Origin: Patescibacteria group bacterium
GTDB lineage: Bacteria; Patescibacteriota; Minisyncoccia; UBA6257; GWB1-50-10
Direction: 5' to 3'
Assembly: GCA_038065455.1 (NCBI GenBank)
Contig: JBBTQX010000008.1
Location: forward strand, 4,257-68,256
Length of the DNA stretch: 64,000 nucleotides
Part shown: positions 1 through 8,966 of the stretch, piece by piece
Numbering within the stretch: position 1 is the first letter of the stretch
Layout: the number at the start of each line of letters is the position of its first letter
The notes under the pieces: model-generated
The model's database searches: none
Seen by the model: only the letters and a program-made list of their open reading frames with translations
What the model was told of the DNA's origin: nothing
Program-made: the position numbers and the translations under genes

Positions 1-676
1 TTTAGATATAAGTTTGGCAGTAGATGCAATGCGCATTTTGCCATCGTTAAAAAATTTCGTATTAGTTTCGGGAGATAGTGATTTTGTAGCTCTCCTTCAA
101 CAAACTAGACAGGCCAAAGTTAATACTTATGTAATTGCTCTACCTTTTTCAATGGGGTATCTTCTAAGACAAATTGCAAATACTTTTTTAAATCTAGAAA
201 CTTTAATAGTTGAGCATAAGCCAACAAGATTAAAAAAGAAGGCGAAAATAGCAAAATTTGTAGATCAAAATTATATAAAGAAAGGAGATTCCTTTCAGTC
301 GTATATTAAACTCCGAAATTTAATGAAATCCACGAAAAACAGTATTATTATCATTGATTCATATATAGATGACCAAATCCTTTTAATGATTCAACTGTTA
401 AAACCAGGGATTAAAAAGATTATTATTACTGACACCAATAAAATCACCCCAGCAGATTTTTTTATACAGGTTGAAAAATTAAAAAATGACGGACACTTGA
501 TAGATATTTATGAAAGCAAAAAATTCCATGATAGGTTCATTTGCATAGATGATATTTGGTGGCACAGCGGACATTCGTTTAAAAATTTCGGAGAGAAAGA
601 TTCTATGTTTAATAAAGTTACCAAAGAAGCCGCCCAAAACATAAATAATAGAATGGCCGAAGTGAAGAAAAAATAA
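1..676 (+). CDS. NYN/LabA-like nuclease domain protein, 5'-truncated by the window edge, with a C-terminal extension carrying a PLD/HKD-like motif
   Basis: Frame reads LDISLAVDAMRIL...FVLVSGDSDF, matching NYN motifs (D..ia.D, SGDsDf). The C-terminal part has HDRFICIDDIWWHSGHSFKN, resembling H-x-K-x4-D-x6-G-S-x-N of PLD nucleases with K replaced by R. The reading frame is open to position 1. Confidence 0.6.
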   Translation, partial: LDISLAVDAMRILPSLKNFVLVSGDSDFVALLQQTRQAKVNTYVIALPFSMGYLLRQIANTFLNLETLIVEHKPTRLKKKAKIAKFVDQNYIKKGDSFQSYIKLRNLMKSTKNSIIIIDSYIDDQILLMIQLLKPGIKKIIITDTNKITPADFFIQVEKLKNDGHLIDIYESKKFHDRFICIDDIWWHSGHSFKNFGEKDSMFNKVTKEAAQNINNRMAEVKKK

Positions 677-774
677 TATGACTTGGCTAACAAACCCCGA
701 AGGAAAGCCTACGGCTTCCTACGGGGCAAGAAAATTAGAAAAATAAAGGTCAAAAAAATTAACGAATAAAAAAT

Positions 775-957
775 ATGATAAAACCAATTAACATAACTCC
801 TCTAAATACAACAAACACTCTGCAATACAAATGTGAAAAGTGTGGCGATTACGGAACAATTACTTTAAAGAACATTATTATCAATACTGATAATGCTGGA
901 AATTCATTGGTGCCTCTGGATGATTACGAATGTCAGAAATGTGGAGAAGAATTATGA
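775..957 (+). CDS. small zinc-ribbon protein (two CxxC pairs)
   Basis: 60 aa with CEKCGDYG...CQKCGEEL. Overlaps the next gene by 28 nt, so it sits in the operon. Confidence 0.5.
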   Translation: MIKPINITPLNTTNTLQYKCEKCGDYGTITLKNIIINTDNAGNSLVPLDDYECQKCGEEL

Positions 958-1367
958 ACACGACACTACAATTTATTATTACATTATTACTTAGCGGCGT
1001 TATCGCTGCCTTAGTATCAGCAGTAATGCAAAAAAGAAACGAAAAAGAGTCGCGCCTTTTTAACGCAAAACTGGAGGCATACAAAGAATTCGCTGCTCAC
1101 TTGGAAAGCAAGTTTGTTTCGCTCACAAAAGAAGGAAAAAGTTTGAATATTACGACACTGGCAGAAGTAAGTGCAAAATGCCTTTTGATTTCAAGCCCTA
1201 TTGTAAATAAAGAACTAAAAGCATTTCTTGTATATGTTAGCGAAGTTTATAAAAGATGCTGTGCGCCCGATTATGATAAGAATAAAGAATCGGAAATGTT
1301 TGATAAATTATGGAGTGACGCCGATAAAATTGAGGATTTAATGAGGCAAGATTTAGGATTTAAATAA
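930..1367 (+). CDS. small membrane protein (single N-terminal TM helix), hypothetical
   Basis: Hydrophobic segment FIITLLLSGVIAALVSAV. Tightly packed between the Zn-ribbon gene and hsdS. Confidence 0.45.
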   Translation: MSEMWRRIMNTTLQFIITLLLSGVIAALVSAVMQKRNEKESRLFNAKLEAYKEFAAHLESKFVSLTKEGKSLNITTLAEVSAKCLLISSPIVNKELKAFLVYVSEVYKRCCAPDYDKNKESEMFDKLWSDADKIEDLMRQDLGFK

Positions 1368-1369
1368 AT

Positions 1370-2593
1370 ATGACTTGGCCAATAAAAAAATTAGGGGAAA
1401 TTGCGGAAGTGGTTATGGGACAATCACCACCATCTTCCAGCTACAACGAGCAAGGTATTGGTTTGCCATTTTTTCAAGGCAAGGCGGAATTTGGAGAAAT
1501 TTATCCTATCCCAGTTAAATATTGCTCATCTCCAAATCGAATCGCGGAAGCGAACGATATTTTGATATCGGTTCGTGCTCCCGTAGGAAATATCAATATT
1601 ACAAAAGAAAAATCTTGTGTTGGTCGCGGTTTGGGAGCTCTCCGCGCAAAGGAGGACATTTTAAATCAAATGTTCCTATTCTATTTCATGAAAAAGAATG
1701 AAAATAATTGGTCTAGACTTTCAACTGGAAGCACATTCTCTGCAATCAAAGGAAGTAGTTTAAGAAATTTTGAAATCCCGGTTCCTCCTCTTGCAATCCA
1801 AACCCAAATTGTTGAGCGGTTGGATAAAATCGCCAAGGCGCAGAAATTGAATGATGGGCTTATCCAGAAAACTGACGAGCTTTTTCAATCGCTTTTGCAT
1901 AAGGAATTAAACCCCGTTAGAGATAGCAAACACTCTAACGGGGTAAATCCGGCCGGCCCCGCCGACGCTTCCGCCTTCGTTAAAACTTCGGCGGATAAAA
2001 AAGCTATGGCGGGCAAGAAGAATTGGGAGATTAAAAAATTGGGAGATATTATCAAACCACAGTATGGATACACTACATCGGCAAAAGACTCAGGAAATTA
2101 TAGGTTTATAAGAATTACCGACATTGGTGATGAGGGCGAATTAAGAGATTCTGATAAAAAATATGTGGCCATTAGCCAAGACGAAGCAAAAAGCTATCAA
2201 TTACGAAACGGTGATCTGCTACTGGCACGGACTGGCGCAACGTTCGGCAAGATTCTCTATTTCGAAGAAGGCGAACCGGCAATTTTTGCATCGTTTTTGA
2301 TTCGCTTAAACCCTGATACTTCAATTGATCCATTTTACATTTGGTTATTTTCTCGATCCCAGGACTATTGGCAACAAGCTAGATCGCTGATGACCGGCTC
2401 AGGGCAACCACAATTTAACGCAAATAGGCTAAAGCAGATTAAAATTCCTCTTCCACCCCTCGAAATTCAAAAGCAAATCGTCGCCAAACTTTCCGCGATT
2501 CAGAATTACAAAAAACAGCTTCTTGGACAAAAAGCAAAACTCAAAGAGCTTTTTGACTCGGCTTTGGCGAAATCAATGTCGAAAGATGCCTAA
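1370..2593 (+). CDS. hsdS: type I restriction-modification specificity subunit (HsdS), two target-recognition domains
   Basis: Duplicated architecture with conserved segments IPVPPLAIQTQIVERLD and IPLPPLEIQKQIVAKLS following each TRD, and a coiled-coil spacer. No hsdM/hsdR are seen in the window. Confidence 0.85.
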   Translation: MTWPIKKLGEIAEVVMGQSPPSSSYNEQGIGLPFFQGKAEFGEIYPIPVKYCSSPNRIAEANDILISVRAPVGNINITKEKSCVGRGLGALRAKEDILNQMFLFYFMKKNENNWSRLSTGSTFSAIKGSSLRNFEIPVPPLAIQTQIVERLDKIAKAQKLNDGLIQKTDELFQSLLHKELNPVRDSKHSNGVNPAGPADASAFVKTSADKKAMAGKKNWEIKKLGDIIKPQYGYTTSAKDSGNYRFIRITDIGDEGELRDSDKKYVAISQDEAKSYQLRNGDLLLARTGATFGKILYFEEGEPAIFASFLIRLNPDTSIDPFYIWLFSRSQDYWQQARSLMTGSGQPQFNANRLKQIKIPLPPLEIQKQIVAKLSAIQNYKKQLLGQKAKLKELFDSALAKSMSKDA

Positions 2594-2613
2594 AATTTTG
2601 ATAAAATAAATTT

Positions 2614-2829
2614 ATGCAAAGAACGCCGGTTTCATCAACAAATATTAGTTCAATTGGCTACGATCCACAGTCGGCTACTTTAGAGGTGGAGTTTACTTCG
2701 GGCGATGTGTATCAGTATTTTAATGTACCGGAGCGTTTATATGACGGATTGCTTAAGGCGGCGTCGCCTGGGCAATTTTTGAATATAAATATTATTCAAT
2801 ATGGCTATCGGTATCAGAAAAGAAGTTAA
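2614..2829 (+). CDS. KTSC domain protein
   Basis: IGYDPQSATLEVEFTSGDVYQYFNVPERLYDGLLKAASPGQFLN matches the KTSC (lysyl-tRNA synthetase C-terminal-like) domain consensus. Confidence 0.7.
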   Translation: MQRTPVSSTNISSIGYDPQSATLEVEFTSGDVYQYFNVPERLYDGLLKAASPGQFLNINIIQYGYRYQKRS

Positions 2830-3610
2830 TTTTATGTTTACGCCAAAAACACAAAGAATAAAAGACATCGCAGAAAATAAACAGGAAGTCATCAAACGAC
2901 TTGAAAGTGTTTTTGATGCAAACACTCGCGTTTATATTGATTATGCCAATGTCAGACCGTGGAGTGAAAAACTTGGGTGGCATATTGACCTAAAGCGTCT
3001 CAAACAGTTTTTGGATTCTTTCAGCACTATAGAGGCAATCAATTTCTATAATGGATATCTTGCGGGCAATGAGCGCTCGGAAAAAGAAAAATCAGAAGCA
3101 GAAAATTACAAATATATTCTTCGAACGAAGCCAGTCAAAATACTCAATTTTTCTATCAATGCCTCAAGCGTCTCGTCAGATTCGACGGTTCTTGTAAAGC
3201 AGTTTATTCGCCGCGCGTTACTGAAGAAGTACGAAGTTGGGACAATTGAATACTTAAATCAGCGTTTTGCCGACATGAACAAGAAGGGCGAATATTTTAT
3301 TGAGGATATGAAATGTAATTTTGATGTTGAAATCGGCGTTGATATGCTCCTTGATTGCGAACGAAACAGCGCGGAAACTTTTATATTATGGAGCGGAGAC
3401 AGTGATTTTGCCGATCCAATTAAAAAATTAATAGCCGCCGGCAAACAAGTTTATTTGTTTGCGACAGCCGGTAGAATTTCCAGCGAATTGAACGAACTTA
3501 GAGAAAACGGTCTCAAAATAGTAGATATTTTTGATCTCAAAGAGTTTATTTGTTGGTTAAAAGAATCGGCTTATAAAAGCACAAAAGACCCCGTTGCCGA
3601 GGCCCTTTAG
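2801..3610 (+). CDS. NYN/LabA-like nuclease domain protein (probable start at internal Met, ~2834)
   Basis: RVYIDYANV...CNFDVEIGVDML...ILWSGDSDFADPIKKL are NYN catalytic motifs. Overlaps the KTSC gene end. Confidence 0.75.
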   Translation: MAIGIRKEVNFMFTPKTQRIKDIAENKQEVIKRLESVFDANTRVYIDYANVRPWSEKLGWHIDLKRLKQFLDSFSTIEAINFYNGYLAGNERSEKEKSEAENYKYILRTKPVKILNFSINASSVSSDSTVLVKQFIRRALLKKYEVGTIEYLNQRFADMNKKGEYFIEDMKCNFDVEIGVDMLLDCERNSAETFILWSGDSDFADPIKKLIAAGKQVYLFATAGRISSELNELRENGLKIVDIFDLKEFICWLKESAYKSTKDPVAEAL

Positions 3611-3689
3611 CTCTAAAATCCGTGATCTTACGATCAATTACACTATAGCATAAGACAAAGAAAATTGTCCACAGGTGGTAAATATATGG

Positions 3690-3995
3690 AAATCGAATCA
3701 AAACAACCCCATACCAGTTCGCTACGGGGCAGGCAAGGGCAACCCCGCCTTCGCACTAGGCTACGGACGGGCAGGCAGTCAAAAGTTCGAAAATCGTTGA
3801 GCAGGGCGAGCAAGCGAGCGAAATATAAGAGCGCCTTCGGGCGCTTTTATATTTCCGAGCGCGCTCCTCGGGGTATAGCGAGTTTGCGAGCTATACCGAG
3901 GAGCTGACGAGTGAAGTGCAAGGCCGCCGTAAGGCGGTTTTGAATTTCCGAAGCGGCGACTCGGAGTATTCTCTGAATACCCGAGGAGCAAACAA
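3690..3995. ncRNA. candidate structured RNA or repeat element of unknown class (multiple tetraloop-capped hairpins and internal direct repeats)
   Basis: GC-rich island in an AT-rich intergenic region. Hairpin aaatataagagcgcc-UUCG-ggcgcttttatattt (UUCG tetraloop), hairpin gccgcc-GUAA-ggcgg (GNRA), a long hairpin ctcctcgg..tatagc..gctata..ccgaggag, and a second hairpin with the same outer ctcgg/ccgag arms. Direct repeats gctacggggcaggca / gctacggacgggcaggca. The strand is not determined. Confidence 0.4.
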
Positions 3996-4049
3996 TTTCC
4001 ATCCTTTGTAAGAGCTGTAAATTCTCTCATATTTAGTATAATTTTAGAT

Positions 4050-4358
4050 ATGGGTATAGAACAAATTTCATCAGATCAGGAGAAAAAAGCCATGTTTAAT
4101 GTAGGCGAAGGTGTAATGCCAAGGTGGTCAACTGACGAGAACCGTGAAGAAATGATGCCCGCCATGAAACTGGACAAAAATTATTATGTTGTCGATCAGG
4201 TTGATGAAAGTGCTGGTAGTATCCATCTTAAAGGAACGTCATTGGATGACTGGTATGAAGCCAAATTTTTTGTCAAAGCTTTAGATCCGAAATTCAGACA
4301 ACCTAGCGAGAGAGAAAAACGAGCAAGTCCTGAGGGTTATGATACTCTAGCTCCTTAA
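4050..4358 (+). CDS. hypothetical protein
   Basis: 102-aa ORF with no recognisable motif. Confidence 0.35.
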   Translation: MGIEQISSDQEKKAMFNVGEGVMPRWSTDENREEMMPAMKLDKNYYVVDQVDESAGSIHLKGTSLDDWYEAKFFVKALDPKFRQPSEREKRASPEGYDTLAP

Positions 4359-4504
4359 TGAATGGATAATTCAAGATTAGAGCAAGTTCGGTTATAAACT
4401 GAATCTGCTTTTTTATTCTTCCAAAACCATTCCAATACATTCGCTTCGCTCAGTATCTACAACATCGTCCCACTCGGAGAGCAACGACTTTTGACAATAT
4501 AACA

Positions 4505-6206: not shown

Positions 6207-8966
6207 TTAGGAGCAACCTCCCGAAGAACTGCCGCACTGAAGGCAGGTCAGGCAGGTGCCGGTGCGCACCATCATTCCCCCGCAACTCCGGCAAACCGTA
6301 TCTCCGGCGACCGATTTGACGCTCTTTTTGGGAGTATCGACATTCGCCTCCGGAGAAGAACTCTTAACCGAAGCGGCCACCGCCACTCGAGCCGGTTCTT
6401 TCGATTCCTCCTTCATTTCAATGAGATGATTATTATGGGATTCGCGGGACATTCCGAATTCAGAAAGATCGTCTTCCGAAAGGAAGTCGATGGCCAGATA
6501 CCGGAACATATAATCAATAATACTCGTCGCAATCCGAATATCGGGATTTTCGGTAAAGCCAGCCGGCTCGAATCGGCTATAGATGAATTTGTTGGCGAGC
6601 GCCTTGAGCGGCACGCCATACTGAAGCGCCATGGAAACGGAAATGGCGAATGCATCCAAAAGCCCCGAGAGCGTGCTTCCCTGCTTGGCCATCTTCACAA
6701 ACATCTCCGCCAAACTGCCGTCTTCATAAATGCTGTAGGTGAGATAGCCTTCGTGGCCCGCGATGGAGAATTTATGCGTTTTGGAAATTCTGGTCGGAGG
6801 CAGACGTCTTCGAAACGCTTCGCCCGCCAATTTCAATTCCTTATTGTCTTTGGACTTACTTTCCGACGTATTCAAAGGCTGGGCGGACTTGGAGCCGTCG
6901 CGATAAACGGCGAAGGCTTTAATACCCATCTTCCAAGCCATTACGTAAGCTTCCTCGATTTCCCCCTTTGTCACGTCGTGGGACATATTGAAAGTTTTGG
7001 ATATCGCGCCCGAAATAAAAGGCTGGACGGCGGCGACAATTCTTATATGCCCGCGCCAGGAGATTTCCCGCGTGCCCTTCTGGGCTTTGACCGCGCAATC
7101 GAATATCGCCAGATGCTCGTCCTTCATACCCGGCGCGTTTTCCACCGTGCCGTTTTCCGCCACGTAATCAATGATGTTTTTTGCGTCCGTCGCCGAGTAG
7201 CCGAGCTTCAAGAGCGCGTTCTCCACGCCGGCATTCACGATTTTCATCCAGCCGCCGCCGACGAGCTGTTTCATTTTCACAAGCGAGAAATCCGGCTCAA
7301 TGCCCGTGGTGTCGCAATCCATCATAAAAGCAATCGTGCCGGTCGGCGCAATGACCGTCGACTGGGAATTCCGGAAACCGTGCTCTTCCCCGAGCGCGAG
7401 CGCTTCGTCCCAAATCTTTTGAGCCTCCGTTCCGAGCTTCTTATCATCGAGGAAATTAAGATTGATTTTCTTCGATTCCGAACCATGGTGTTTTATGACC
7501 TCAAGCATCGGCTCGCGATTCGCGGCATATCCTTCGAAAGGCTTCACGCGTTCCGCAATCTTCGCCGAAAATCGATAGGCCTCGCCGGCCATCAAAGACG
7601 CGATGGCTCCGCTCCAAGCGGCGCCTTCTTCGGAATCGTACGGAATGCCCTTAGTCATCAGAAGCACTCCCAGATTGGCGAAACCGAGGCCCAATTCGCG
7701 GAATTTACGGGCGTTTTCCCCGATTTTCTCCGTCGGATAGGATGAACCGCCTACAATAATGTCTTGGGCCAAGATAAAAACATCCACGGCATGTTTGAAG
7801 TCATTCACCATAAAAGTGCCGTCTTCGCGGAGGAATTTCATTAAATTAATGGAAGCGAGATTACAGGCCGAATTATCCAAATGCATATACTCTGAGCAGG
7901 GATTCGAGGCATTGATGCGGCCGGAATTCGGACAGGTGTGCCATCGATTAATAGTGGAATCGAATTGAACGCCCGGGTCGCCGCAATCCCAAGCCGCCTG
8001 CGCAATTTCGGAAAGCATTTCCCGAGCCTTGTATGTCTTGGCCGGCTGGCCATCCGTGACGCGTTTCGTCTGCCATTCACCGTCGCGCTCCGCCGCTTCC
8101 ATAAAATCATCGGTAAGCCGAACGGAATTATTGGCATTCTGGAATTGAATGGAATTCCAGGCATCGTTATTCAAATCGGCCATATTATAGCCCGCATCGA
8201 TGAAAGCTTTGACCTTCTTCTCCTCCTCCGCTTTGGTGCGGATGAAATCCATTACATCGGGATGATCGATATTCAAAACCACCATCTTCGCGGCGCGGCG
8301 CGTCGTACCGCCGGATTTGATCATGCCCGCGACGGAATCAGCGCCGCGCATAAATGATACCGGACCGGAAGAATACCCTCCGCCGGACAAATTTTCCGTT
8401 CTGGAACGGAGATTGGAAAGATTTACGCCTGCGCCGGAACCGCCTTTAAAAATAATTCCTTCGGTTTTGATCCAATCCAAAATTGAATTTATGCTGTCTT
8501 CCACCGAAAGAATAAAACAGGCGGAACACTGCGGATGTTCCCGCGCGCCGACATTGAACCAGACCGGACTGTTAAATGAACCTTTCTGGTTGAGAAGAAT
8601 ATATTTCAATTCGTCTTCAAATATTTGCGCTTGATTCGCGGTCGCGAAGTAGCCGAATTTTTCGCCCCAGCCGCGGATGACACTCGTGACCCGCGTAATC
8701 ATTTGCTTCAAACTTTCTTCGCGCACCGGCGTGCCGAGCTTGCCGCGGAAATATTTCGCCACGGTGATGTTCACCGCGTTCAACGACCAGAAATCCGGAA
8801 ACTCCACTTCTTTTTGTTCAAAAACTTTTTTGTCGCCGCTGCCTACGACTGCGTCGCGTTTCACCCACTTCACTTCGGAGAACGGATCTGTGCCCGCCTT
8901 GGTAAAAATTCTCTTCAAAGGAATGACCTTTTTATCTTTTTTGGAGACCGTTTTTTTTCCGCTCAT
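6207..8966 (-). CDS. nrdJ: ribonucleotide reductase, class II (adenosylcobalamin-dependent, NrdJ-type) with a C-terminal Cys-rich zinc ribbon
   Basis: 919 aa. RNR active-site region NPCSEYMHLDNSACNLASINL and PTGTIAFMMDCDTTGIEPDFSLV. No adjacent nrdB. C-terminus has CRSCGG...CLTCLQCG. Confidence 0.85.
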   Translation of the reverse strand: MSGKKTVSKKDKKVIPLKRIFTKAGTDPFSEVKWVKRDAVVGSGDKKVFEQKEVEFPDFWSLNAVNITVAKYFRGKLGTPVREESLKQMITRVTSVIRGWGEKFGYFATANQAQIFEDELKYILLNQKGSFNSPVWFNVGAREHPQCSACFILSVEDSINSILDWIKTEGIIFKGGSGAGVNLSNLRSRTENLSGGGYSSGPVSFMRGADSVAGMIKSGGTTRRAAKMVVLNIDHPDVMDFIRTKAEEEKKVKAFIDAGYNMADLNNDAWNSIQFQNANNSVRLTDDFMEAAERDGEWQTKRVTDGQPAKTYKAREMLSEIAQAAWDCGDPGVQFDSTINRWHTCPNSGRINASNPCSEYMHLDNSACNLASINLMKFLREDGTFMVNDFKHAVDVFILAQDIIVGGSSYPTEKIGENARKFRELGLGFANLGVLLMTKGIPYDSEEGAAWSGAIASLMAGEAYRFSAKIAERVKPFEGYAANREPMLEVIKHHGSESKKINLNFLDDKKLGTEAQKIWDEALALGEEHGFRNSQSTVIAPTGTIAFMMDCDTTGIEPDFSLVKMKQLVGGGWMKIVNAGVENALLKLGYSATDAKNIIDYVAENGTVENAPGMKDEHLAIFDCAVKAQKGTREISWRGHIRIVAAVQPFISGAISKTFNMSHDVTKGEIEEAYVMAWKMGIKAFAVYRDGSKSAQPLNTSESKSKDNKELKLAGEAFRRRLPPTRISKTHKFSIAGHEGYLTYSIYEDGSLAEMFVKMAKQGSTLSGLLDAFAISVSMALQYGVPLKALANKFIYSRFEPAGFTENPDIRIATSIIDYMFRYLAIDFLSEDDLSEFGMSRESHNNHLIEMKEESKEPARVAVAASVKSSSPEANVDTPKKSVKSVAGDTVCRSCGGMMVRTGTCLTCLQCGSSSGGCS

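Follow-up and report, generated by a model that had tools for sequence, protein, structure and literature searches.

A tandem two-hairpin repeat module with conserved structure between genes of a Patescibacteria defense island

Introduction

What is the nature of a G+C-rich, strongly folding block of about 300 nt that lies in an A+T-rich spacer between two genes of a small bacterial genome? The question is raised by 64,000 nt of a Patescibacteria group bacterium (assembly GCA_038065455.1, contig JBBTQX010000008.1, positions 4,257 to 68,256 of the forward strand), a stretch that we call the window. A first-pass annotation, made by reading the sequence without database searches, had marked positions 3690-3995 of the window as one element of several hairpins, probably a structured RNA. 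Here we describe that the right part of this block consists of two tandem copies of a module of about 92 nt, that the module is a family recurring between genes of Patescibacteria and Saccharibacteria genomes, and that its copies retain a base-paired structure on one strand. We tentatively interpret the element as a lineage-specific structured boundary element similar in kind to BOX and SPRITE repeats, which may act in cis as a terminator or insulator and as a module protecting 3' ends. To our knowledge, almost no lineage-specific non-coding or regulatory elements have been described for Patescibacteria (candidate phyla radiation, CPR), and the literature that we searched for intergenic repeats or structured RNAs of Saccharibacteria or CPR bacteria contained nothing relevant.

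Results

Two tandem modules form the right part of the block

The block is intergenic, with an NYN-domain gene on its left and an open reading frame (ORF) of 102 amino acids (aa) on its right (Table 1). Its GC content of 0.56-0.60 across 3686-4006 (150-nt windows), compared with about 0.37-0.39 in the flanks, agrees with the earlier description of a G+C-rich block in an A+T-rich spacer. Exact protein matches assign the window to assemblies from Hainich groundwater, and the same arrangement is repeated in the independent assemblies L006, L001, L055 and L056 (loci other than the window are given by L numbers). On the plus strand the block is predicted to fold with -128.8 kcal/mol, compared with -98.8 ± 4.8 kcal/mol for dinucleotide shuffles (z = -6.2), none of 100 shuffles being as stable; for the minus strand, z was -5.0. 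The first-pass annotation had treated the block as a single multi-hairpin element of about 300 nt, but it is not one unit. It is a gene stump with a duplication (3686-3785) joined to a short head and two tandem modules (3785-3989), and the modules also occur singly and in other contexts.

The two modules, A and B, occupy positions 3805-3989 and are 66% identical, with 58 invariant columns in an alignment of 3800-3908 with 3905-3998. A module begins with GGAGC, three variable nt and YGAGY, followed by hairpin 1, which has a foot GAAA…, a G+C-rich apex, a 4-nt loop and flanks formed by an A-tract and a U-tract. After CGA and about eight variable nt comes hairpin 2, composed of CTCGG, r, GTAT, a variable top and loop, ATAC, (C) and CGAG, and the module ends in GAGC. 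The GUAA-capped hairpin of module B stands in the same register as the UUCG-capped hairpin of module A. Both had been recognized in the first-pass annotation; the former has a CCGCC/GGCGG core, and the stem of the latter, given there as 14 bp, in fact extends over 16 bp including one G·U pair. The two longer hairpins that had been said to share their outer arms, CTCGG…CCGAGGAGC, are likewise present at 3863-3904 and 3960-3989, and 3863-3872 is fully complementary to 3980-3989.

Table 1. Features of the block and its surroundings in the window.
Feature	Position	Strand	Remarks
NYN-domain gene	2801-3610	+	left neighbor of the block
5' stump of a small ORF	3686-3736	+	ATG and 16 codons, MEIESKQPHTSSLRGRQ; identical to the start of P0004
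Imperfect direct repeat	3721-3777	+	gctacggggcaggca at 3721-3735, gctacggacgggcaggca at 3760-3777; part of the duplication
Head	3785-3811	+	GTTCGAAAATCGTTGAGCAGGGCGAGC; about 27 nt, 5' of the first module
Module A	3805-3904	+	covariance-model match 67.8 bits, E = 2.7e-15
Module A, hairpin 1	3820-3835/3840-3855	+	UUCG loop; 16 bp including one G·U
Module A, hairpin 2	3863-3904	+	core CTCGG 3867-3871, CCGAG 3896-3900
Module B	3905-3989	+	covariance-model match 102.4 bits, E = 6e-24
Module B, hairpin 1	3913-3928/3933-3948	+	GUAA loop; core CCGCC/GGCGG 3924-3928, 3933-3937
Module B, hairpin 2	3960-3971/3975-3985	+	longer hairpin spans 3960-3989
Module B, end	3985-3989	+	sequence GGAGC
Promoter-like site of the 102-aa ORF	4015-4042	+	CTGTAA-16-TATAAT; ends 7 nt before the ATG at 4050
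102-aa ORF	4050-4358	+	right neighbor of the block
Solo head and tail without module	4461-4492	+	AACATCGTCCCACTCGGAGAGC followed by AACGACTTTT; 22-mer at 4461-4482

The modules keep a base-paired structure on the plus strand

Pairing and covariation were assessed on an alignment of seven distinct modules with 25 proposed pairs. Standard pairs were formed in 97.7% of the cells, compared with 30-53% when the 3' partners were slid by 1-3 columns, and five pairs (14 cells) were changed on both sides, compared with 0-1 in the slid versions. The covariation score was 0.286 versus 0.127 in shuffles, and none of 500 shuffles reached the observed value. The double changes included UA↔CG, CG↔UA and GC↔CG in hairpin 1 and UA↔AU↔CG in the top of hairpin 2, and module B differs from module A by compensatory changes. 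Covariation among related copies, which the first-pass annotation had named as one way to check its proposal, is found between modules. Both hairpins are retained even in the most diverged copy, L019c, in which CCCGG/CCGGG replaces CUCGG/CCGAG; this copy was judged from its own fold, as its addition by MAFFT gave an out-of-register alignment. A third helix that would close hairpin 1, between the linker GAGC… and …GC, was considered and rejected: it has two invariant pairs only and no covariation.

The pairing is also strand-specific. In 11 of 11 G·U cells the G resides in the 5' arm on the plus strand, and these cells are C·A mismatches on the opposite strand, which is favored by two cells only (A·C). 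Because the G·U cells pair only on the plus strand, its minimum free energy was below that of the minus strand in all eight modules, by 3-12 kcal/mol. Together, these observations support that the modules are selected for a base-paired structure on the plus strand. The idea of a structured RNA therefore holds for the right part of the block, but not for the left part, where we found no structural conservation. Among the modules, the loops vary (UUCG, GUAA, UUUC, CAAG, GUGA and UUAUAG), indicating that the conserved feature is a stable stem and not a loop motif. The tetraloops, which had been taken as RNA-level motifs, accordingly look like generic stabilizers and not like recognition motifs.

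Known RNA families, ribozymes and protein coding

No Rfam 15 model matches the block, in agreement with the earlier failure to recognize RNase P, SRP, tmRNA or 6S RNA in it. At gathering thresholds Rfam detected only six tRNAs in the whole window, and a permissive scan of 3500-4200 yielded a rimP leader as best match (E = 0.64, 21 bits versus a threshold of 47), while matches inside the block had E ≥ 0.7 and covered only the terminator-like hairpin 1. In L018 and L019, nothing was detected at E ≤ 1. The Rfam scan suggested in the first-pass annotation thus assigns no known family to the block.

The first-pass annotation had also pointed to a hammerhead-like string, CUGACGAG, which is indeed present at 3904-3911 with GAA directly after it, and a tandem and dispersed arrangement is common among small ribozymes. 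The string occurs only between modules A and B, however, and the aligned strings elsewhere read CAAGCGAG, CGAGUGAG and CGAACGAG, so that CUGAnGA is not conserved in other modules. No three-way junction is supported, and no hammerhead, twister, pistol, hatchet, HDV-like or RAGATH model matched even at E ≤ 10. We therefore reject a tandem self-cleaving ribozyme, hammerhead-like or of another small class, as extremely improbable.

Equally hard to believe is that the block encodes a small basic protein, either in a 73-aa plus-strand frame (3686-3907) or in an 83-aa minus-strand ORF (3779-4030). Both ORFs are open, and public assemblies annotate the minus-strand one as a gene, but a search of 5.8 billion proteins returned the same locus only, apart from a 17-residue N-terminal match, and no Pfam domain was detected. 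The L018 copy of the left half leaves only 41 aa of the plus-strand frame, and what separates the module variants are indels and paired substitutions by which stems, not codons, are kept. In addition, the translated sequence is of low complexity and rich in R, G and S. The non-coding character proposed earlier is thus borne out, as homologues of the ORFs were found at their own locus only and other copies do not preserve the frames, and we reject the coding of a protein.

The modules are a family beyond the window

A strict sequence pattern searched in 185,579 species-representative genomes hit a single contig, L016, which belongs to a Ca. Saccharibacteria metagenome-assembled genome from the same study and carries module A, a diverged module B' and a terminator. 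With a looser pattern, metagenomes yielded L017 (a longer contig of the L016 locus), L018 (a further Hainich context) and L019 (from another project, JGI). A covariance model, R1, built from the seven distinct modules and run with filters off, recovered from the 64-kb window only the two known modules, the next best match having 12.5 bits and E = 0.18. In the 2.7-kb L019 it detected three dispersed single modules (101, 94 and, for the divergent third copy, 29.3 bits), and in L055/L056 two arrays 2 kb apart within one genome. There is one array in the 64-kb window, whereas L055 has two arrays in 20 kb. Near-identical copies of module A stand in unrelated flanks in L017/L016, L018 and array 1 of L055. 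The two arrays of L055 (10042-10226 and 12048-12232) are near-identical, lie in direct orientation and flank a Fic-DUF7695 cassette; the island around them also codes for an OLD-like ATPase/TOPRIM protein, HsdR and DUF5667.

Other searches did not extend the family. A blastn-short comparison of the block with the window gave no second copy, and Tandem Repeats Finder reported nothing at the array because the module units are too diverged. BLAST against phage and plasmid collections returned chance matches of 39 nt or nothing, pattern scans of viral contigs returned chance matches or plain terminators only, and contigs fetched via identical proteins (CSD, HsdS and the last gene of the window) came from the same population only.

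The left part of the block

The left part begins with the 5' stump of a small ORF. P0004, a 73-aa protein whose start is identical to the stump, carries on as a normal ORF in L027 and L028, which come from other metagenomes. The window departs from P0004 after GGCAGGCAA, and the motif is then repeated once. The direct repeat that had been noticed in the first-pass annotation is present and belongs to this slipped, imperfect duplication of the ORF stump, which is about 40 nt long; the repeat has no further copy within the window. A stretch of about 210 nt (3601-3811) recurs at 98% identity 3' of a DUF7695 gene in L018, L046 and L055. No diverged copy of the left part was found beyond this same block, and RNAfold predicts little structure. 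We read the left part as rearrangement debris without a function of its own; an ORF stump with a duplication is a simpler account of it than membership in a widespread G+C-rich CPR repeat of the 'LRSGQA type'.

In L027 (290-600) and L028 (2300-2600), the P0004 ORF is interrupted by a small GIY-YIG nuclease gene flanked by inverted repeats, CCCCCACACCAAA…TTTGGTGTGGGGG. The same two inverted repeats stand back to back in L007 (3965-3993), shortly past the start of a TspO-like ORF, as a gene-free 'empty' hairpin. The gene and its repeats look like a mobile GIY-YIG cassette.

The modules lie between transcription units

In each of the seven cases, array or single module, the orientation is that of the gene downstream, and the predicted promoter of this gene is located 3' of the array or module. 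In the window, the promoter-like site of the 102-aa ORF, of which the L055 variant TTGTAA-16-TATAAT scores 10/12, follows the array, which is therefore upstream of the promoter and not in the mRNA of that gene. Downstream of the L019 modules, promoter-like sites scoring 11/12, 10/12 and 10/12 begin 9 to about 60 nt past each module. The sequence TTGACC-17-TATACT precedes the Fic gene in L018/L055, and L017 has a promoter-like site 5' of a second, different Fic gene. The downstream genes are mutually unrelated: the 102-aa ORFan, the two Fic genes, a PepT-like peptidase gene and small ORFans. On the upstream side, L019b begins directly past the stop codon of the PepT-like peptidase gene, which has no other terminator, while L017 and L019c sit between divergent genes.

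These positions bear on the idea that the block is a gene-specific cis leader, a riboswitch or attenuator, of the 102-aa ORF. The array is located 60 nt upstream of this ORF and travels with it in L004 and L055, its hairpin 1 is terminator-like, and CUCGG, the partner of the 3' arm of hairpin 2, might alternatively pair with the CCGAG that comes after hairpin 1. Yet the array is followed by the promoter-like site, modules of this family also stand 5' of unrelated genes, it is the stems and linkers that hold the conserved nucleotides while the loops vary, and modules B and L019a (CCGAA) have lost the alternative CCGAG/CUCGG pairing. For the 102-aa protein, an ORFan, no homologues were found. 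A leader of this kind is very improbable, and we reject membership in the riboswitches or gene-specific leaders on the grounds of the unrelated downstream genes and the predicted promoters 3' of the modules.

Hairpin 1 has the sequence features of an intrinsic terminator, namely a G+C-rich stem-loop and a U-rich tract, and a terminator scan detected it on the plus and/or minus strand in the window, L017, L018, L019 and L055. On the plus strand, its tails read UUUUAUAUUU, UUUUGAAUUU and GUUUGCGUUU. A canonical terminator follows directly 3' of the last module in L017, L018/L055 and L019a, and for both Fic toxin genes the operator and promoter region is preceded by an array and an additional terminator. 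Operator-like inverted repeats, TTTGTTTACAT-N11-ATGTAAGCAAA, occur 5' of the two different Fic/DOC genes, once in L017 (6780-6840) and twice in L018 (417-490). Each of these sites has upstream of it a long hairpin that is nearly perfect and whose stem measures about 19-20 bp (L017, about 6646-6700; L018, about 343-392).

Terminators directly after the last module would also be expected if the modules were small RNA genes, either stand-alone or processed at GGAGC, that act in trans or as the RNA partner of defense or toxin cassettes, for example as a family of sibling small RNAs or as an antitoxin-like or sponge RNA for Fic. The order array-terminator-Fic is found in two diverged versions, a TATAAT lies 14 nt 5' of the L017 array, and the copy number appears low. 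Furthermore, old paralogues (A versus B, 66%) keep their structure via compensatory changes together with conserved single-stranded linkers, as functional RNAs typically do. On the other hand, a promoter scan gave no site directly 5' of any array. The L017 TATAAT has no acceptable -35 element, L018 has only a weak TTTAAT, the window and L019a/b have none, and L019b adjoins a stop codon. The genes downstream have no relation to one another, a promoter of its own is predicted for Fic 3' of the terminator, and no ToxN/AbiQ-like or other RNA-processing toxin was detected; the models for ToxN/AbiQ and the type III models of PADLOC gave no match among the downstream genes.

A precedent for such an RNA partner would be type III toxin-antitoxin systems (ToxIN, CptIN, TenpIN), which L017, L018 and L055 resemble in having tandem direct repeats, an intrinsic terminator and a toxin-type gene (Fic) in a defense island. 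Our modules differ from them in length and number (92 nt in 1-2 copies versus about 36 nt in 2-5.5 copies), in a toxin that is not a ToxN/AbiQ endoribonuclease and has its own predicted promoter, and in their presence 5' of non-toxin genes as well. We consider small RNA genes a possible but on balance unlikely explanation.

Head, tail and number of modules

In addition to the modules, the element comprises a head, which in L018 and L046 occurs without a module after it, the homology to the window stopping exactly at 3811. The window head and the sequence 5' of one of the two L055 arrays agree in 19 of 28 positions in a hand alignment and appear to be diverged versions, and the window head aligns weakly (score 1) with the L019/solo head, GTTCCAACATCGYCCCACTCGGAGAGC. 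In L019b and L019c, the head reads GTTCCAACATCG(T/C)CCCACTCGGAGAGC. Downstream of the 102-aa ORF, a solo head is joined directly to AACGACTTTT, the 3' flank of module L019a, and thus represents a version with zero modules. Its 22-mer is unique in the window (0 expected by chance) and identical to the L019c head in 22 of 22 positions. This solo head-tail lies between the terminator of the 102-aa ORF and a convergent Ham1 gene.

The number of modules is therefore zero at the solo head-tail and at the head alone in L018/L046, one per site in L019a-c, and two per array in the window, L017, L018 and L055, which is the pattern of a BOX-type element with a fixed end part and a variable number of tandem modules. 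Folding head, module and tail together gave no consistent head-tail helix, a 9-nt pairing being present in L019b only. There were no target-site duplications, as the flanks are the constant GAGC and not variable sequences. Similarity of the head to the six tRNAs of the window, which a tRNA 3' fragment or an att site might have shown, was not found, and this origin was discarded.

The element marks the seams of a hypervariable island

The first 5 kb or so of the window are A+T-rich and contain a type I restriction-modification operon mixed with NYN, KTSC and zinc-ribbon genes, and are thus a defense-island context. Related strains, with FtsA proteins that cluster together at 90% identity, share the CSD-RNR genes but differ in what lies upstream of them. 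The window has the order HsdS, KTSC, NYN, left half with head, array, 102-aa ORF, solo head, Ham1, DUF6580 and CSD. In L055, the order is HsdR, OLD-like, …, DUF5667, array 1, Fic and DUF7695, continued by left half with head, array 2, 102-aa ORF, … and CSD, and in H51 (L018 and L046) it is array, Fic, DUF7695, left half with head, about 680 nt of other sequence and CSD. The 5' edge of homology lies exactly between (G)GAGC and AAGCGAGCG in at least five upstream contexts, and the 3' edge lies directly after …GGAGC. This defense island is hypervariable, and the element marks its seams.

The same sites interrupt assemblies. Many short-read contigs of the population stop within the array, in line with a repeat that exceeds the k-mer in length. 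Breaks fall at window positions 3862, 3886, 3887 and 3899; L036 starts inside module B, and L056 likewise ends in the array. L004 joins the upstream flank of L017 to module B of the window and may be either a true recombinant or a chimera across 86 identical bases.

Such mosaicism raises the question whether the hairpins are folded single-stranded DNA sites for a recombinase or transposase (comparable to REP/RAYT, IS200/IS605 ends or attC), which would move modules or exchange gene cassettes flanked by them. Breaks exactly at the constant (G)GAGC occur at both array edges and between modules in at least five contexts, and two direct arrays flank the Fic-DUF7695 cassette in L055. In H51, the head (a copy of 3601-3811) and the array are on opposite sides of this cassette, whereas they are fused in the window, where the junction of GGGCGAGC with AAGCGAGCG is the one predicted for an excised circle. 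A module separates each of the co-oriented small genes of L019 from the next, hairpin 2 shows bulged bases and strand asymmetry as in attC, and the locus is hypervariable among closely related strains. Against such sites, no tyrosine or serine recombinase, HUH/RAYT, IS200/IS605 or integrase domain was found in the genes examined around the arrays, and there are neither terminal inverted repeats nor a variable target-site duplication. Ordinary homologous recombination between repeats of about 190 nt can explain the mosaicism, no module motif is present where the H51/window replacement has its other boundary, at the CSD promoter (5862), and L004 is at once the clearest 'recombinant' and a possible chimera.

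Like our modules, REP/BIME elements with RAYT of Enterobacteria and Pseudomonas are extragenic, imperfect palindromes that are kept as hairpins, cluster between genes, serve as recombination substrates and are implicated in attenuation and in the protection of mRNA 3' ends. REPs are about 35 nt long and alternate in orientation, however, in contrast to our strictly direct modules of about 92 nt, and no RAYT-like gene, including any HUH/Y1 transposase domain, was present among the neighboring genes examined. Integron attC sites are structured, variable in length and conserved at their ends, show bulged bases and strand asymmetry, and lie between co-oriented small cassettes whose content differs between strains. 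Unlike integrons, our loci revealed no R''/R' core motifs (RYYYAAC…GTTRRRY) at the element edges (…GAGC), no IntI and no integrase domain in the flanking genes listed, and they have two hairpins per unit, tandem units and cassettes with their own promoters. A role as DNA sites is, in our view, unlikely.

A more specific proposal, which we consider distinctly improbable, is that modules and heads are the sites of an undescribed cassette-exchange system of Patescibacteria, functionally analogous to attC, with a different core (…GAGC) and a putative recombinase. Such a system would explain the swaps of Fic-DUF7695, NYN and the 102-aa ORFan at element boundaries between close strains, the circle-like junction of head and array in the window, the head that is identical in 22 of 22 positions in an unrelated metagenome, and the difference in folding between the strands.

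Neighboring genes and transcription signals

Positions 1-3610 of the window, like L040, contain in this order genes for HsdM, an NYN protein (320 aa), a zinc-ribbon ORF, a 137-aa ORF, HsdS, KTSC and a second NYN protein (269 aa). The first NYN protein matches the PADLOC candidate defense family PDC-S05. A terminator-like hairpin, ccccgaaggaaagcc tac ggcttcctacgggg, lies 3' of its gene at 686-730; it includes ctacggggcaag, which resembles ctacggggcagg of the left half, probably by coincidence.

On the minus strand, a σ70-like promoter, TGGACA-18-TATAGT with an upstream TG, runs from 3671 to 3642, followed 3' by a terminator-like hairpin (3609 to 3582) that overlaps the stop codon of the NYN gene (window 3582-3671 in total). 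The weak Rfam match to the rimP leader corresponds to this hairpin. L055 (10360-10447) has the same minus-strand promoter 3' of its DUF7695 gene, with a hairpin and U-tract that differ in sequence. Promoter and hairpin could produce an antisense RNA of about 60 nt against the 3' ends of the NYN and DUF7695 genes.

The 102-aa ORF (NCBI: hypothetical protein AAB377_02650) is an ORFan, as a homology search returned its own locus only. Its TATAAT ends 7 nt 5' of the ATG, pointing to a leaderless-type start, and a clean terminator follows at about 4381-4415. An AlphaFold model, made to test for a ToxN-like toxin, had a pLDDT of 39 and was unusable.

Discussion

The element is new to Rfam 15 and to the literature that we searched, and in kind it resembles small interspersed structured repeats of other phyla. 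We tentatively favor the interpretation that it is a lineage-specific, BOX/SPRITE-like structured boundary element, combining a cis-acting terminator or insulator with a module protecting 3' ends. The terminator architecture of hairpin 1, the position between transcription units and the placement 5' of Fic genes lead to the reading as a cis terminator or insulator. According to this model, the element would be transcribed from the upstream unit as part of a plus-strand RNA, in which hairpin 1, with its lower stem of A-tract and U-tract, would act as an intrinsic terminator. Read-through would be stopped or attenuated ahead of the next promoter, a nuclease-resistant 3' end might be left behind by the element, and the element would thereby form a terminator/insulator cassette at the boundary of two transcription units. 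While the repeat family, its conserved structure, its strand bias, its positions relative to genes and promoters and its several contexts are observed, transcription, termination or insulation and any benefit to the cell are what we infer. Near-identical copies at several sites in one genome are a substrate for recombination and a cause of assembly breaks, and recombination between the repeats may shuffle the neighboring cassettes of the defense island.

The closest analogue in architecture is the BOX element of Streptococcus pneumoniae, which is composed of boxA, a variable number of boxB and boxC and is thought to affect the expression of co-transcribed genes via extensive secondary structure (PMC3049150). 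Like it, our element is a composite intergenic repeat in which a fixed 5' part is joined by 0 to n tandem internal modules; both are co-oriented with genes, and in both the modules fold singly, so that the copy number can change without disturbing the rest. Our modules are longer (about 92 nt with two hairpins versus about 45 nt for boxB), they showed no terminal inverted repeats that pair head and tail, and they apparently occur as only 1-2 arrays per tens of kb, in a different phylum, compared with more than 100 BOX elements per genome. The block matched no Rfam model, although no direct comparison with BOX sequences was made. SPRITE, likewise interspersed, is similar to a Rho-independent terminator (PMC3049150). 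Its duplex is unusually long, as is that of our hairpin 1 (18 bp compared with 16 bp), a U-rich tract comes next in both, and both may have terminator activity. Our modules differ by lying upstream of the next co-oriented promoter, by a second, bulged hairpin, conserved linkers and a head, and by a U-tract that is itself base-paired and co-varying. With no evidence of homology, no terminal inverted repeats and an apparently low copy number, the element is not a member of either BOX or SPRITE.

Several observations weigh against a terminator/insulator. The U-tract in the lower stem of hairpin 1 pairs with the A-tract on the plus strand, and two of these pairs co-vary (UA↔CG), which would not be required of a plain terminator. 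This suggests that the whole 16-bp helix, or a protein binding to it, is under selection. The model has no role for hairpin 2, for the linkers GAGYGAAA, UUUCCGA and GGAGC, or for a 22-nt head that is identical between unrelated metagenomes. Nor does it explain the copies between divergent genes: since the upstream genes of L017 and L019c are divergent, there is no obvious upstream transcript to be terminated. The copy number appears low, unlike that of BOX or REP families and more like that of a functional gene. The main caveat is the small sample: the distinct modules number eight, come from five loci in two environments and include paralogues.

For the annotation of these genomes, the repeat explains the many contig ends of the population at the array site and the spurious 83-aa 'hypothetical protein' that gene callers emit across the array, and a covariance model is ready for the annotation of such sites. 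For the biology of a poorly charted group, it provides a compact, structure-conserved and strand-specific module at transcription-unit boundaries, 5' of toxin and defense genes. If the element indeed acts as a terminator or insulator, it would show how tiny, gene-dense genomes isolate neighboring promoters and silence toxic genes. If it should instead turn out to be a recombination site or an RNA partner of the cassettes, it would add a new component to the biology of defense islands and be of greater importance.

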